64,000 bases of DNA, taken from assembly GCF_055900595.2 (NCBI RefSeq), contig NZ_CM148325.1. One strand, written 5' to 3'. The notes beneath the pieces were generated by a model, which made no database searches, was not told where the DNA came from, and was given only the letters and a program-made list of their open reading frames with translations. A program made the position numbers and the translations under genes. How positions within the stretch are numbered: the first letter of the stretch is position 1; the number at the start of each line of letters is the position of its first letter. This document shows positions 14,478 to 52,770 of the stretch, piece after piece.

Positions 14478-14626
14478 AACTTTGCCTCAGGCATTAGAAA
14501 TAGCGCGTTATTGTACACGGATTAATCGCACTACAAAACAGGATCACAAACATCCTCCGCAAACAAGTATTGCAGAGTCCCTTTGTGATCGCTTTCACGG
14601 AGCATAAAAAGGGTTATCCAAAGGTC

Positions 14627-14720
14627 ATTGCACCAATATGGTGCTTAATGTTTCCATTGAAGCACTATATTGGTGCAATATTCACATCGTGGTGCAGCCC
14701 TTTTGCACGATGGTGCGCAT
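14627..14720 (+). promoter_or_regulatory. NtrC (NRI) enhancer binding sites upstream of glnA
   Basis: Repeated TGCACC-N5-GGTGCA-like dyads (tgcaccaatatggtgc, gcactatattggtgca, ggtgcagcccttttgcac). Confidence 0.7.
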
Positions 14721-18968: not shown

Positions 18969-19015
18969 TCCGATAAGTTCAGTATGATCTTGCCCGGAAA
19001 ACGGGGAGAGTCATT

Positions 19016-19126
19016 ATGCTGGAATCAATAATTAATCTCGTATCGAGTGGCGCAGTTGACAGCCACACACCACAAACTGCTGTTGCTGCTGTTCTGTGTG
19101 CCGCGATGATTGGGCTGTTTAGCTGA
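19016..19126 (+). CDS. yshB: Small hydrophobic protein (36 aa), YshB-like
   Basis: ATG preceded by GGGGAGAG; MLESIINLVSSGAVDSHTPQTAVAAVLCAAMIGLFS; I recall a small ORF of this kind between glnG and hemN. Confidence 0.55.
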   Translation: MLESIINLVSSGAVDSHTPQTAVAAVLCAAMIGLFS

Positions 19127-19140
19127 AGCTCGTTGTTTAT

Positions 19141-19244
19141 GCCGGATGCGGAGAAAGTCGTAGGCCTGATAAGACGCGACCAGCGTCGCATCAGGCATCA
19201 TGCTCAGATGCCGGATGCAGCGTAAACGCCTTATCCGGCCTACA
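19141..19244. repeat. REP/BIME cluster
   Basis: Several gccggatgcg...cgcatccggc / gcctgataagacgcg...cgtcgcatcaggc palindromic units. Confidence 0.75.
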
Positions 19245-19354
19245 AAAGCAATAATTTCAACAGGTTTTCTTAACCAGCGCATCAAGCAATCTTGTTCTCA
19301 GCACATTGATGGCGCTTTCGTTTTCTACTTTGTAAACGAAGCGCCATTCACCAT

Positions 19355-20728
19355 TTAAATCACCCGTGAGAACTGCTGCATCCGCGCTTTCTGGCGCAGA
19401 TAGGTATCAAAGCACATGCAAATGTTGCGGATCAGCAGGCGACCTTTCGCCGTTACCTGAATCCCCTTCTCATCCACATCCACCAGCCCATCTTTTGCTA
19501 ACGGGGCGAGCAGCTTGAGATCTTCTGCAAAGTAGTCAGCGAAGAGCAAATCCCACTGTTGCTCAATAGGGGCGTAATCCAGACGGAAGTTGCAGATGAG
19601 CGACTTAATCACATCGCGGCGAATACAGTCATCACGCGTTAGCGCAATACCACGCCACAGCGCATTGCCTTGTTCATCCACTTGCTGATAGTACTGCTTC
19701 AACTCTTTCTGGTTCTGCGCGTAGCAGTCGCCAATCATGCTGATGGCGGAAACGCCCATCCCCAGCAGATCGGTATCGCCCTGAGTGGTGTAGCCCTGGA
19801 AGTTACGATGCAGCACGCCTTCACGCTGGGCCACCGCCAGCTCGTCATCCGGACGGGCAAAGTGATCCATACCGATAAACTGATAGCCCGATTGTGTCAG
19901 GAAGGCGATGGTTTCCTGCAGGATATCGAGTTTTTGCTGCGGACTCGGCAGGTCAGCATCTTTGATTTTACGCTGAGCAGCAAAAATGGTCGGCAAATGC
20001 GCGTAGTTAAAGACACTCAGGCGATCGGGGTTAAGTTCCGCCACGCGTTTCAGGGTAAAGGCGAAACTCTCCGGCGTTTGTTTCGGCAGGCCGTAAATCA
20101 GGTCGATGTTGGTGGAGGTAAAGCCAATCTCACGCGCATGGTTAAGCAGTGCAAAGATGAACTCTTCATCCTGCTCGCGGTTAACCAGACGTTGCACTTC
20201 TTTGTTGAAGTCCTGCACGCCCATGCTCAGGCGATTAAAGCCTTCGGCGCGTAAATGATCGAGTACATCCAGTTCGATTTCCCGCGGATCGACTTCGATC
20301 GAGATCTCCGCATCGGCATTGAACTGGAAGTTTTCGCGCAGCAGCTTCATCAGACGGCTGATTTGCGCTTTATTCAGATACGTCGGCGTTCCTCCGCCCC
20401 AGTGCAATTGGCTGACGTGACGCCCGGCGAACAGCGGTGCACGATGGACGATTTCTTGCTCCAGCGCGTCCAGATACTGATCGGCCTTGTGCTGCTGGCG
20501 AGTAACAATCTTATTGCAACCGCAGAAGTAACAAAGCTTATGGCAGAACGGGATATGTACGTAGAGAGATAATGGACGCTCAGGATAGCGCGCCACGGCT
20601 TGTAAAAACGCCTGTTCGCCGAAGTCTTCTGAAAACTCCAGCGCGGTTGGGTACGAGGTGTATCGTGGCCCGGAATAGTTATATTTCTGGATCAGGGCCA
20701 GATCCCAGTCGATTTGCTGTACAGACAT
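19355..20728 (-). CDS. hemN: Oxygen-independent coproporphyrinogen III oxidase (radical SAM)
   Basis: 457 aa from MSVQQIDW; YVHIPFCHKLCYFCGC radical SAM motif including the fourth Cys. Confidence 0.95.
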   Translation of the reverse strand: MSVQQIDWDLALIQKYNYSGPRYTSYPTALEFSEDFGEQAFLQAVARYPERPLSLYVHIPFCHKLCYFCGCNKIVTRQQHKADQYLDALEQEIVHRAPLFAGRHVSQLHWGGGTPTYLNKAQISRLMKLLRENFQFNADAEISIEVDPREIELDVLDHLRAEGFNRLSMGVQDFNKEVQRLVNREQDEEFIFALLNHAREIGFTSTNIDLIYGLPKQTPESFAFTLKRVAELNPDRLSVFNYAHLPTIFAAQRKIKDADLPSPQQKLDILQETIAFLTQSGYQFIGMDHFARPDDELAVAQREGVLHRNFQGYTTQGDTDLLGMGVSAISMIGDCYAQNQKELKQYYQQVDEQGNALWRGIALTRDDCIRRDVIKSLICNFRLDYAPIEQQWDLLFADYFAEDLKLLAPLAKDGLVDVDEKGIQVTAKGRLLIRNICMCFDTYLRQKARMQQFSRVI

Positions 20729-20916
20729 GCTCACTCCTTCCGATGGCGTCTCTGGCGGCTACGGCGTACCGGCGGATGCCCGTTTCGGGTCATCAACCGG
20801 TTGCGCAGCCACTTTTGTCGCCGCGACAACCGCTGTAGTTTAACGAATAACCACACCAGATAACATATAACCGGAAGGGTTATCAGCAGAACGGGAAGGC
20901 CCACGGCGGCAATCCG

Positions 20917-21426
20917 TTAGTTGCCCCGCAGCAGACGCATCATGTCTTCTTGCTTCTCGTCTTCTTCCTCTTCTTCGTCATCGTCATAAGAGAGGCCGAG
21001 TTTCTGCATCAACTCATCAATACGATCCAGTTTGGCATCCACCCAGGATTGCTCTTCGGCGCTCAGGGTTTCGCCTGCCTCCAGACGTTCCAGCAGCGCA
21101 TCCAGACGCTCATCCGTTTCCAGTAACTCCAACTCCGCCTGCGGTGAAAGCATAGGTTTCTCACTCTTCGGTTTGTGCTGTTTGGTGACTTTTTCAGTCA
21201 CGCCCAATGGAATAGGGGTTTTACTGCCAATACGTGGATCTTTCGGTGCGTTCTGGCCTTTGCTGCCTGACGTGGTGTTACCGCCCGCTGCGCGGCTGCC
21301 CGGCGCATGACCACGACGTTTTTTCTGACGCTTACGGTCACGAGCTTCCTGATCCAGCTCCTCGCGTGTTTTTCGACGCGCTTTTGCATGACCTTTGCTG
21401 CGTGAGTTTGAAGATGATGGTTTCAT
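20917..21426 (-). CDS. yihI: Der GTPase-activating protein YihI
   Basis: 169 aa from [19 protein letters not shown]; basic N-terminus and acidic C-terminus. The ORF track's upstream extension overlaps csrC and is rejected. Confidence 0.9.
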
Positions 21427-21492
21427 AATGGTTCGTCTTTTAGCCGTTTTATTCAGTATAGATTTGCGGCGGAATCTAACAGAAAGCAAGCA

Positions 21493-21737
21493 AAGAAAAA
21501 AGGCGACAGATTACTCTGTCGCCTTTTTTCCTGACTCATAACCCTTAACGGGTCTTACAATCCTTGCAGGCCGCCAACACACCCTGTTTTTCCATTAGCC
21601 GGAACAATCCGTGTTGATTCCATTTCCGTTTAATTACGTCTCCGGACGTTTGTCTTCCTGACAATCCTCTGTCTTCGCCTCCTGGCGCTCCTGACCCTCA
21701 TCCTGAGTCATTGTTCCTGTTAGCGTCCTCGCTCTAT
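21493..21737 (-). ncRNA. csrC: CsrC small RNA (CsrA-sequestering)
   Basis: - strand begins ATAGAGCGAGGACGCTAACAGG, carries many GGA motifs (AGGATGAGGGTCAGGAGCGCCAGGAGG...) and ends in the ggcgacagagtaatctgtcgcc hairpin plus T-tract. Confidence 0.8.
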
Positions 21738-22007
21738 GGGTGCTACTTTACGCCTTTGCTTTAAACAAACAATCAACCGCCATCAGTATTTGCACATTTT
21801 CAGAGTTTTATATAAAAGCAATTAACTGATTTATATAGCTTATTTGACATGCATCGCAGAATTTTCTCTGCTATTTCGCATAAAGACTATCGGCAATGTC
21901 TCACAAAGCGTATGGCTTTTACTTACAACGCTCACGCCGAAAAATCCGCCTTTTATTATGGTTCAGGTATAATCACCGCAAAGCTTTGACTGACGGAGAC
22001 GACCGCT

Positions 22008-22640
22008 TTGACTAATTTGAATTATCAACAGACGCATTTTGTGATGAGTGCGCCTGATATTCGCCACCTACCTTCCGATACCGGAATTGAAGTGGCTTTT
22101 GCAGGCCGTTCCAACGCAGGTAAATCCAGCGCGCTGAACACGCTGACTAACCAGAAAAGCCTGGCGCGGACCTCAAAAACCCCAGGGCGCACCCAGCTTA
22201 TCAACCTGTTTGAAGTGGCTGACGGCAAGCGTCTGGTTGACCTGCCCGGCTATGGCTACGCGGAAGTCCCGGAAGAGATGAAGCGCAAATGGCAACGCGC
22301 GCTCGGCGAGTACCTCGAAAAACGTCAGAGCCTGCAAGGCCTGGTGGTACTCATGGATATTCGCCATCCGCTGAAAGATTTGGATCAGCAGATGATTGAG
22401 TGGGCGGTAGACAGTAATATCGCCGTACTGGTGCTGCTGACCAAAGCGGACAAACTGGCAAGCGGCGCACGTAAAGCACAATTGAATATGGTGCGTGAAG
22501 CAGTGCTGGCGTTTAACGGTGATGTGCAGGTTGAAACGTTCTCTTCGCTGAAGAAGCAAGGCGTGGACAAGCTGCGGCAGAAACTGGATACCTGGTTTAG
22601 CGAGATGCAGCCTGTAAAAGAAACGCAGGACGGCGAATAA
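22008..22640 (+). CDS. engB: Ribosome biogenesis GTP-binding protein EngB/YihA
   Basis: 210-aa ORF beginning at a TTG codon (MTNLNYQQ); G-motifs GRSNAGKSS and DLPGYG. Confidence 0.9.
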
Positions 22641-22650
22641 TTTTCTTGCC

Positions 22651-22740
22651 TTAATGCTTGTGCCGGATGTGGCGTATCCGGCCCGTAAATTCAATAGATT
22701 ACACTTCTACCGTTGGCCTGATAATCAGTGCGCATCAGGC
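22651..22740. repeat. REP elements
   Basis: gccggatgtggcgtatccggcc and ggcctgataatcagtgcgcatcaggc palindromes. Confidence 0.7.
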
Positions 22741-22765
22741 ATTACGGATCTTTTCTTTCGCCCAA

Positions 22766-22874
22766 TAAAAAACGCCCCAGTCATTACTGACTGGGGCGGC
22801 TAAAATATTCAGCCAAATCCGATTACGTGAAGTAAAAGGTCTGAAAGATAGAACATCTTACCTCTGTACCCTAC
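22766..22874 (-). ncRNA. spf: Spot 42 small RNA
   Basis: - strand reads GTAGGGTACAGAGGTAAGATGTTCTATCTTTCAGACC...GCCCCAGTCAGTAATGACTGGGGCGTTTTTTA, which I recognise as Spot 42 including its terminator. Confidence 0.9.
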
Positions 22875-23021
22875 GCGACTAACTTTACTCTTTTTTGTTC
22901 AGTTCAGAAAGCATTTTTTGTAATTTTTTTTCAGTTGTTGCATAGGAATTTCTAATAGCCATCACAAAACGTGACAGCTTATGTTGCTTACTTACGAAAA
23001 AAGGGCATGTTCAGGCGAATC

Positions 23022-25808
23022 TTAGTGCGCCTGATCCCAGTTTTCGCCACTCCCCACTTCCACCAGCAACGGCACATCCAGACGGGTACAGTTTTCCATC
23101 AGTTGATGAATCTGCTTCGCGACGGCATCGACATCATCTTTATGAACTTCAAATACCAGTTCATCGTGTACCTGCATAATCATACGCACACGCGGTTGCT
23201 CAGCTTGTAACCACGCATCAACGGCAATCATCGCTCGTTTGATAATGTCGGCGGCGGTTCCCTGCATTGGCGCGTTAATGGCTGCACGTTCAGCCGCTGC
23301 ACGACGAGCACCATTGCTGGATTTGATATCCGGCAGATACAGACGGCGTCCGTCCAGCGTTTCAACGTAGCCCTGTTCTTTCGCCTGCGCACGGGTGCGC
23401 TCCATATACTCCAGCACGCCTGGGTAGCGTTCGAAGTAAAGGTCCATGTACTTCTGCGCTTCTTTACGTGGAATGTTCAATTGTCGCGCCAGACCGAAAG
23501 CACTCATGCCATAAATCAGACCAAAGTTGATCGCTTTCGCGCTACGACGTTGCTCGCTGGTGACGGTTTCCAGTGGCAAACCAAACACTTCTGCCGCCGT
23601 AGCCCGGTGGATATCTTTTCCTTCCGCGAATGCGGTCAGCAAGCCTTTGTCACGCGAGAGATGCGCCATAATGCGCAGTTCAATCTGCGAGTAGTCCGCC
23701 GAGACAATCACATAATCCTCTGGCGCAATAAACGCCTGGCGGATACGACGACCTTCTTCGTTACGCACCGGAATGTTTTGCAGGTTAGGATCGGTTGACG
23801 ATAAACGTCCCGTTGCGGTTACTGCCTGGTGATAAGAGGTATGTACACGCCCGGTTTTCGGGTTGATCATCAGCGGCAGCTTGTCGGTGTAGGTCGATTT
23901 CAGCTTCGCCAGACCACGATACTCCAGAATCACTTTTGGCAACGGATAGTCCAGCGCCAGTTCTTCCAGTACCTCTTCCGACGTTGACGGCGCACCACCC
24001 GGCGTTTTCTTCAGCGGTTTAATGCCCTGTTTTTCAAACAGAATGGTTTGTAACTGCTTGGTGGAAGAAAGGTTAAATTCTTCACCTGCAATTTCATGCG
24101 CTTTCTTTTCCAGCTCAGCCAGACGTAGAGTGAGCTCTTCAGAATGATTATGAAGCACTTTCGGATCGATCTTCACACCGTTACGTTCAATGCGTGAAAG
24201 CACCGGCACCAGCGGCATTTCGATGTTCTCGAAGACGTTCAACGGCCCTTTGTGTTTTTGCAGATCCGGCCACATTTTCAGATGCAGCTGCAAGGTGACA
24301 TCGGCATCTTCGGCTGCGTAACGTCCGGCCTCTTCGAGGGCAATCTGGTTAAAGGTCAGTTGATTTTTGCCTTTACCGGCAATCTCTTCAAAAGTGATGG
24401 TTTTGTGCTTCAACCAACGTTCCGCGAGGCTGTCCATATCGTGACGCCCGGCAACGCTATTGAGAATGTAGGATTCAAGCATGGTATCAAACGCAATCCC
24501 ACGCAGCTCAATGCCGTAATTCGCCAGAATACCGCGATCGTATTTTAGGTTTTGCCCAACCTTCAGCGCCTTTTCATCTTCCAGCAGCGGTTTTAGCAAC
24601 TCGAGTGCACGCCCGCGAGAGATTTGATCGGGCGCATCAAGATAATCATGAGCAACCGGAATATATGCCGCTACGCCTGGCTCGATAGCAAAAGAAAGCC
24701 CGACCAGGTTGGCAGAGATGTTATCGAGGCTGTCGGTTTCGGTATCAAATGCAAATACCGGCGCTTTTTCCAGCTTCGCAATCCACGCTTTCAGTATTTC
24801 TTCATCAAGGATGGTGACGTAGTTGTCATAAGAAATCACCGTTGCCGTCACTTCTGGCGCTTCGTCTGCAACACTGGTTTCCTGCGGCCTGGCTGCGGGT
24901 TTCGCCCCTTTAGCCTGTAACCATTTGCCCGCTTCGACATCAGCAGTCCAGCGTTTGAACTCATACTTTTTGAACAGCCCCAACAACTCTTCCGCCGCCG
25001 GTTGCTGCACTTCCAGTTGTTCACAGGTCAGCTCCAGTTCAACGTCGGTTTTAATCGTCGCCAGCTGGTATGAGAGATAAGCAACTTCTTTGTTTTGCTC
25101 GAGCTTCGCTGCCATTGTTTTCGCGCCACGGAAGCTCAACCCAGCAATTTTTTCTGGCTCGGCATACAGCGTATCCAGCCCGCCAAGACCTTGCAGCAAT
25201 GCCTGCGCGGTTTTTTCACCGACGCCCGGTACGCCAGGGATGTTATCAGAGGAGTCACCCATCAGCGCCAGGAAGTCGATGATCAGTTCTGGCGGCACGC
25301 CGTACTTATTCACCACCTCTTCCGGGCCGAGGATGGTATTCGTCATGGTATTGATAAGCGTAATATTTGGCGTCACCAGCTGCGCCATATCTTTATCGCC
25401 AGTGCTGATCAGCACCGGACGCCCGGCTTTTTCGGCTTCGCGCGCCAGAGTACCGATAACGTCGTCCGCTTCTACGCCAGAAACCGCCAGCAGCGGCAGT
25501 CCCATCGCTTTGACCATCGCGTGCAGAGGTCCGATTTGTGCTCGCAGATCGTCCGGCATTGGCGGGCGATGTGATTTGTAATGTTCAAACAGTTCATCAC
25601 GAAAGGTTTTTCCCTTGGCGTCAAAGACCACCGCTGCATGCGTCGGTTTATATTGCATGATTAGACTGCGCAGCATGTTGAGGACACCATACATCGCACC
25701 GGTCGGCTCGCCTGCGCTGTTAGTCAGCGGGGGAAACGCGTGATATGCGCGATAAAGATAAGATGAACCATCTACAAGGATAAGTGGATTTTGGGGGATC
25801 TGAACCAT
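23022..25808 (-). CDS. polA: DNA polymerase I
   Basis: 928-aa ORF with 5'-3' exonuclease, 3'-5' exonuclease and polymerase domains. Confidence 0.95.
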
Positions 25809-25931
25809 AATGTCCGTGCCTGTTTATCAGATTATGGGTAAAGGATGCCACAGACAGGATGAAAACATGAGTTTTTCACCGCTTTTCGTGAAAATCTTTT
25901 GTAGATCTTCTGGATCGCTCGCAAATCGTCA

Positions 25932-25940
25932 TGTGGATAA
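25932..25940 (-). promoter_or_regulatory. DnaA box upstream of polA
   Basis: + strand tgtggataa is TTATCCACA on the polA strand, about 125 bp upstream of the polA start. Confidence 0.4.
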
Positions 25941-26171
25941 CTTTGTGCATAAATTATTTACATCACTTTTAATTTATTATCATGCTTTTTACAGCATGAT
26001 GTTTGTCTTTGCTTTTCATACAGTTAAATATAAAGCCATCCCTAATAATTGTGATAATGGGATTTTTTCTAATGTGGATAGATATGAATTATTTTTCTCC
26101 TTAAGGATCATCCGTTATTTGGGGCGTTTTCTGCTAAAATCGGCGCCTTGCGCTTCTTTAGCGCACTGTCT

Positions 26172-31949: not shown

Positions 31950-32070
31950 ATGCCTGGCAGTTCCCTACTCTCGCATGGGGAGACCCCACACTACCATCGG
32001 CGCTACGGCGTTTCACTTCTGAGTTCGGCATGGGGTCAGGTGGGACCACCGCGCTAAGGCCGCCAGGCAA
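31950..32070 (-). rRNA. rrfA: 5S ribosomal RNA
   Basis: Reverse complement matches E. coli 5S rRNA (TGCCTGGCGGC...GGAACTGCCAGGCAT). Confidence 0.95.
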
Positions 32071-32162
32071 ATTCTGTTTCATCAGACCGCTTCTGCGTTC
32101 TGATTTAATCTGTATCAGGCTGAAAATCTTCTCTCAATCCGCCAAAACATCTTCGGCGTTGT

Positions 32163-35067
<2,905 letters not shown>

Positions 35068-35250
35068 TCACAACCCGAAGATGTTTCTTTCGATTCATCA
35101 TCGTGTTGCGAAAATTTGAGAGACTCACGAACAACTTTCGTTGTTCAGTGTTTCAATTTTCAGCTTGATCCAGATTTTTAAAGAGCAAAACTTCGCAGTG
35201 AACCTTTGCAGGTACACTCTGAAGTATTTTTTATTTAATCACTACAGAGA

Positions 35251-35326
35251 TGGTGGAGCTATGCGGGATCGAACCGCAGACCTCCTGCGTGCAAAGCAGG
35301 CGCTCTCCCAGCTGAGCTATAGCCCC
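35251..35326 (-). tRNA. alaT: tRNA-Ala (UGC)
   Basis: Reverse complement is GGGGCTATAGCTCAGCTGGGAGAGCGCCTGCTTTGCACGCAGGAGGTCTGCGGTTCGATCCCGCATAGCTCCACCA. Confidence 0.95.
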
Positions 35327-35368
35327 ATAACATGTAGTTAAAACCTCTTCAAATTTGCGGTGCAAATT

Positions 35369-35445
<77 letters not shown>

Positions 35446-35513
35446 GTAGAGGTTTTACTGCTCATTCTCATCAGACAATCTGTGTGAGCACTGCAAAGAA
35501 CAGTTCTTTCAGG

Positions 35514-37055
<1,542 letters not shown>

Positions 37056-50527: not shown

Positions 50528-52770
<2,243 letters not shown>

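Follow-up and report, generated by a model that had tools for sequence, protein, structure and literature searches.

With near certainty, the 64,000-nucleotide stretch of DNA analyzed here (the window) is a segment of the E. coli chromosome that carries the hemN-yihI-csrC-engB (yihA)-spf-polA locus, reversed relative to K-12, in which csrC and spf are independent regulatory RNA genes located in the gaps beside engB. Both RNAs are already known, they are near-identical to the K-12 copies, and nothing about them is biologically new; no evidence contrary to the identity of csrC or of Spot 42 was found. For the two genes, the identity, boundaries, structural motifs, terminators, gene order, UvrY site, and intact SpfP frame were established directly, and the functional account of CsrC and Spot 42 is the one published for the K-12 RNAs, which are identical or nearly so. 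The three genes at the center of the locus are as follows.

21493..21737, minus strand: csrC, a 245-nt sRNA predicted to sequester CsrA (Rfam RF00084), with its +1 at 21737.
22008..22640, plus strand: engB (yihA), encoding a ribosome-biogenesis GTPase of 210 amino acids with a TTG start (from the list of open reading frames; named yihA in the annotations of K-12 and strain AST85), flanked by both sRNAs and part of neither.
22766..22874, minus strand: spf, encoding the 109-nt Spot 42 sRNA (Rfam RF00021), with its +1 at 22874.

The order hemN, yihI, csrC, engB/yihA, spf, polA is the mirror image of the K-12 MG1655 annotation, which lists polA, spf (as an ncRNA, with spfP inside), yihA, csrC (as an ncRNA), yihI, and hemN. 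An initial annotation of the window had placed csrC upstream and spf downstream of engB, and the positions obtained here agree with that arrangement: csrC and engB are divergent, and spf and engB converge. According to the open reading frames and the K-12 and AST85 annotations, csrC sits between yihA (engB) and yihI, which is the enterobacterial gene order, and spf lies downstream of polA (23022-25808, minus strand) on the same strand. On the csrC strand, yihI begins only 66 nt downstream of csrC.

A scan with Rfam covariance models, which was the check proposed in the initial annotation, was run with a permissive E-value over positions 19000-26000 and at gathering thresholds over the whole window, and both families were returned each time; the absence of significant matches at these coordinates, which the initial annotation had named as the refuting outcome, was thus not observed. 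The CsrC model (RF00084) matched 21484-21737 on the minus strand with 277.9 bits (gathering score, 61; E = 1.3e-88) over model positions 1-255 of 255, untruncated, and the Spot_42 model (RF00021) matched 22766-22884 on the minus strand with 122.8 bits (gathering score, 80; E = 4e-25) over model positions 1-115 of 115. Both spans are longer than the mature RNAs, because the CsrC model extends 9 nt past the terminator, whereas that for Spot 42 takes in 10 nt ahead of the +1. In a base-by-base alignment, 21493-21737 corresponded to K-12 4051036-4051280, with 244 of 245 bases the same (99.6% identity), and 22766-22874 corresponded to K-12 4049899-4050007, with 109 of 109 bases the same. The ends proposed initially for csrC and spf, on the strands that Rfam also returned, map base for base onto the K-12 genes and therefore delimit the classical 245-nt and 109-nt RNAs. 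These identities, together with the matching gene order, bear out the earlier description of both as known elements and of spf as recognizable from end to end. The RefSeq K-12 features end slightly further 3', by 1 nt for csrC (equivalent to window 21492) and by 2 nt for spf (22764).

K-12 CsrC (csrC, b4457; RF00084, clan CL00106 CsrB/RsmB) shares with the RNA described here the +1, the terminator, the neighbors yihA and yihI, the set of GGA motifs, and the UvrY inverted repeat with its half-site, and differs from it at one base only, RNA position 144, which is A in K-12 and U here. The paralogous CsrA decoy CsrB (RF00018) has in common with CsrC the loop GGA repeats that sequester CsrA, UvrY-dependent activation, and membership of the same Rfam clan. 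CsrB is longer than CsrC, at about 369 nt with about 18-22 GGA sites, and is encoded elsewhere on the chromosome. At the csrC position, the top retained match from the CsrB/RsmB clan was full-length CsrC and not CsrB.

The numerous GGA motifs and the terminator hairpin that had been noted in csrC were both recovered. The RNA strand carries 14 GGA motifs versus 2 on the antisense strand. Across 245-nt stretches of the minus strand of the window, the mean count was 3.2 (sd 1.9), and the maximum of 14 was that of csrC itself, with the next-richest stretch containing 11. Owing to the high G and A content of the RNA, composition-matched mononucleotide shuffles of csrC already contained 7.7 GGA motifs (sd 2.2), so that the count in csrC exceeds what composition alone would give by a modest margin, about 2.8 sd. 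The 14-to-2 strand asymmetry, the placement of the motifs in loops, and the contrast with the rest of the window are stronger signals than this excess. Over the whole window, GGA was not enriched and was in fact slightly rarer than expected (1581 found versus 1725 in shuffles). When mapped onto the Rfam consensus structure, six of the csrC motifs occupied hairpin loops, five occupied single-stranded linkers, and the remaining three overlapped stems or bulges in part or entirely, which is the architecture expected of a CsrA decoy. The predicted fold of the RNA had a free energy of -87.4 kcal/mol, compared with -58.7 kcal/mol (sd 4.2) for shuffled sequences (z = -6.8), and none of 200 shuffles was as stable. 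The RNA ends in the following element.

21493..21532, minus strand: csrC intrinsic terminator, an 18-bp stem with a 4-nt loop followed by a U run, found by a terminator scan and as a consensus stem of the Rfam model (model positions 209-244).

This hairpin, whose stem runs from 21532 to 21493 ahead of the T run, was also present in the minimum free energy (MFE) fold. It looks terminator-like on the plus strand too, because a 5' A run pairs with the U run and extends the stem; the near-symmetric element also gave a weak plus-strand CsrC match at 21486-21530 (42.9 bits).

Both RNA genes are strongly conserved in E. coli. Of 5426 complete E. coli genomes, 5425 contained a match to the 1.6-kb stretch from 21400 to 23000; several strains were 100% identical, and identity of at least 99% over this stretch was reached in only 26 of the 5425. 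Full-length csrC and full-length spf were each present in 5424 of the 5426 genomes, with at least 99% identity in 5424 of 5424 for spf and in 5359 for csrC. The protein-coding genes are less similar to their K-12 counterparts (engB, 96.4%; polA, 97.9%; yihI and hemN, 98.4%) than are the sRNAs (99.6-100%). The 96.4% DNA identity of engB corresponds to 23 differences, among which third-position changes are clustered at 22242-22259; a single residue of the protein is altered, K204 being E in K-12. The divergence of engB between two conserved sRNAs may be due to a recombination tract, or engB here may be a rare allele.

The sole mismatch of csrC to K-12 lies at window position 21594 (RNA position 144). 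Within the long central hairpin, this base immediately precedes a GGA motif, and AAGGA in K-12 becomes AUGGA. The U144 form of csrC was found 100% identical in O157:H7 and ST69 strains and is therefore a common natural variant, and the change is unlikely to matter for csrC. It is conceivable, although we consider it very unlikely, that U144 measurably alters the occupancy of the adjoining GGA by CsrA, and hence the strength of the decoy, in many lineages including O157:H7 and ST69.

The initial annotation had drawn attention to the locus on the grounds that gene-level annotation would leave the surroundings of engB looking empty. Among approximately 10 RefSeq records that we inspected, this description held and was, if anything, slightly understated: spf mostly had no feature (7 of 8 evenly spaced genome rows sampled), and csrC was given a pseudo-CDS. 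In the RefSeq/PGAP records of AST85, O157:H7 PV15-279, and PSJ-36, the csrC locus carries no csrC ncRNA feature and is annotated as "hypothetical protein; frameshifted; internal stop"; a "hypothetical protein" was likewise assigned at csrC in 8 of 8 of the sampled rows. The reason for flagging the locus was therefore justified. The feature in question lies inside csrC.

21545-21711, minus strand: pseudo-CDS on csrC in RefSeq/PGAP records, corresponding to RNA positions 27-193.

Taken at face value, these records would make the csrC region a decayed protein-coding gene and not an RNA gene. The presence of the pseudo-CDS at positions corresponding to 21545-21711, on the same strand as csrC, in all three named genomes, as well as its recurrence in every sampled row, is what speaks for such a reading, to which we nevertheless attach a negligible probability. 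The pseudo-CDS is itself flagged as frameshifted and as containing an internal stop, it has no protein accession attached, and the longest open reading frame within csrC on the RNA strand is 39 amino acids. Moreover, the same locus in K-12 is annotated as the ncRNA csrC, the covariance model was matched over its full length, the GGA motifs are exposed in loops, and identity of at least 99% in 5359 genomes is unlike that of a decaying pseudogene. A decayed protein gene was thus rejected on the basis of the short open reading frame, the pseudo flags, and the covariance-model match. Because no frame exceeds 39 amino acids, the pseudo-CDS on the csrC RNA gene looks like a systematic annotation artifact, and it most likely arises from a spurious protein in the reference set; the idea that the "frameshifted hypothetical protein" is the trace of a real ancestral small open reading frame is a weaker alternative even than an effect of U144 on CsrA occupancy.

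The spf gene contains, in addition to the RNA itself, an intact small reading frame that had not been mentioned in the initial annotation. The elements in and near spf are as follows.

22773..22798, minus strand: spf intrinsic terminator, whose 11-bp stem contains 8 G-C pairs and precedes TTTTTT, found by the terminator scan, as an Rfam consensus stem, and in the MFE fold.
22809..22856, minus strand: spfP, a 15-codon frame within Spot 42 whose AUG is at RNA nt 19, translated as MFYLSDLLLHVIGFG and followed by a stop codon.
22951..22966, minus strand: CRP-like site TGTGATGGCTATTAGA, with 2 mismatches to TGTGA-N6-TCACA, centered at -84.5 from the spf +1 and found by pattern search.

Both the MFE and the centroid predictions fold Spot 42 into a long 5' hairpin, an unpaired segment at nt 49-60, a short hairpin, and the terminator hairpin, with a predicted free energy of -40.6 kcal/mol (z = -5.1; 0 of 200 shuffles as stable). 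K-12 Spot 42 (spf, b3864; RF00021; SpfP, b4837) shares the RNA, the fold, the terminator, the position between polA and yihA, and the 15-amino-acid SpfP frame, with no difference within the RNA. In the spf-polA spacer, two changes distinguish K-12 from the window, one at 22914 and the other a 1-nt indel at 23003, and the promoter region otherwise matches. AST85, which has an identical genome, and K-12 both carry the annotation "small protein SpfP" in the equivalent place. Aoyama et al. (2022; PMC8916003) demonstrated experimentally that Spot 42 is a dual-function RNA that encodes the 15-amino-acid SpfP.

Upstream of csrC, the window contains the regulatory site described for this gene in E. 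coli. The elements in this region are the following.

21888..21905, minus strand: inverted repeat for UvrY (of the BarA-UvrY system), TGTGAGACATTGCCGATA, spanning -168 to -151 from the csrC +1, the same 18-mer as published.
21922..21927, minus strand: TGTAAG half-site, on the upstream side of the UvrY repeat at a distance of 16 bp, in the position reported in PMC4682653.
21738..21775, minus strand: probable csrC core promoter, assigned by eye, with TAAAGT as putative -10, 7 nt ahead of the +1, and TTGTTT as possible -35, separated from the -10 by a 16-nt spacer.

Zere et al. (2015; PMC4682653) reported this inverted repeat and half-site in E. coli csrC, within a UvrY ChIP-exo region extending from -223 to -143. 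In a sigma-70 consensus scan, no promoter was reported for csrC, spf, or engB, and the promoters given here were picked out by eye, with the K-12 +1 positions as reference. A second CRP-like site (TTTGACATGCATCGCA, 2 mismatches) lies at 21843-21858 in the csrC-engB spacer, about 114 bp upstream of the csrC +1. CRP-like matches with 2 mismatches were not enriched in the window (18 found versus 25 expected in shuffles), and since they were no commoner than chance would give, neither the site near spf nor that near csrC was counted as evidence.

An alternative reading is that csrC, spf, and engB form one unit, in which engB would be controlled, for example, by cis-antisense action or transcriptional interference from the convergent spf or the divergent csrC, instead of being three independent neighbors. 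The csrC-engB-spf arrangement is found in essentially all E. coli genomes (in 5414, coverage of the 1.6-kb stretch is 80% or more), spf is convergent on engB across a spacer of only 125 bp, and csrC and engB have a 270-bp divergent control region in common, with the UvrY site inside it. A conserved order within one species is, however, expected from vertical descent and is uninformative on functional coupling. Neither csrC nor spf overlaps the engB coding sequence, and both stop at strong terminators, so that no read-through into or against engB is to be expected; furthermore, the engB-spf spacer also contains REP-like palindromes, and the published targets of CsrC and Spot 42 are acted on in trans. 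We found no evidence for cis action of csrC or spf on engB, there being no coding overlap and both RNAs having strong terminators, and we regard control of engB as one unit with its neighbors as highly improbable. The three genes are thus treated here as independent neighbors.

The spacer between engB and spf (22660-22745) contains, as judged by eye, two REP-like palindromes with 7-bp arms: GCCGGAT..ATCCGGC at approximately 22664-22683 and GCCTGAT..ATCAGGC at approximately 22717-22741. An inverted-repeat search of this spacer with a minimum length of 8 found nothing, the arms of these palindromes being 7 bp. Three of the four differences from K-12 in the spacer sit in the second palindrome.

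Several other elements were identified elsewhere in the window. Just downstream of hemN, a REP/BIME-type palindromic element at 19163-19240 matched the Rfam model naRNA4 (RF02564) with 81.2 bits on the minus strand and 46.4 bits on the plus strand. A complete rRNA operon occupies 31952-37055 on the minus strand and comprises the 16S (35514-37055), 23S (32163-35067), and 5S (31952-32067) genes, two tRNA genes (35254-35326 and 35372-35445), and a StyR-44 match (35075-35183). Matches above the gathering score were also obtained for Erse (RF02757) at 52165-52416 (minus strand, 307.1 bits) and ES222 (RF02755) at 14559-14666 (minus strand, 133 bits); within the ES222 match, positions 14584-14599 agree with the CRP consensus apart from 1 mismatch.

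By analogy with the K-12 RNA, CsrC would act as a decoy: its GGA motifs in loops and single-stranded linkers would bind CsrA dimers and titrate CsrA off its mRNA targets, which would relieve glycogen synthesis, biofilm formation, motility, and central carbon flux of control by CsrA. Given the near-identity of the sequence, CsrC in this genome probably binds and sequesters CsrA and would be turned over through CsrD and RNase E. The BarA-UvrY system activates csrC transcription (PMC4682653), and phosphorylated UvrY would be expected to do so here via the inverted repeat located about 160 bp upstream. Spot 42, as an Hfq-dependent sRNA, would pair through its single-stranded regions with galK, srlA, fucI, nanC, and other mRNAs and repress them; from the 100% identity to the K-12 RNA, we infer that Hfq-dependent pairing with these targets is retained. 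As in K-12, the targets would be transcripts involved in the use of non-preferred carbon sources. In K-12, cAMP-CRP represses spf, and SpfP binds CRP, which strengthens the feed-forward loop in catabolite repression (PMC8916003) that CRP and Spot 42 form by virtue of the repression of spf transcription by cAMP-CRP.

CsrC, a CsrA decoy, and Spot 42, a catabolite-repression sRNA with a CRP-binding small protein, are textbook regulators of E. coli. The practical value of identifying them here lies in annotation, in that a reading of this locus at the gene level would overlook or misdescribe two global regulators.
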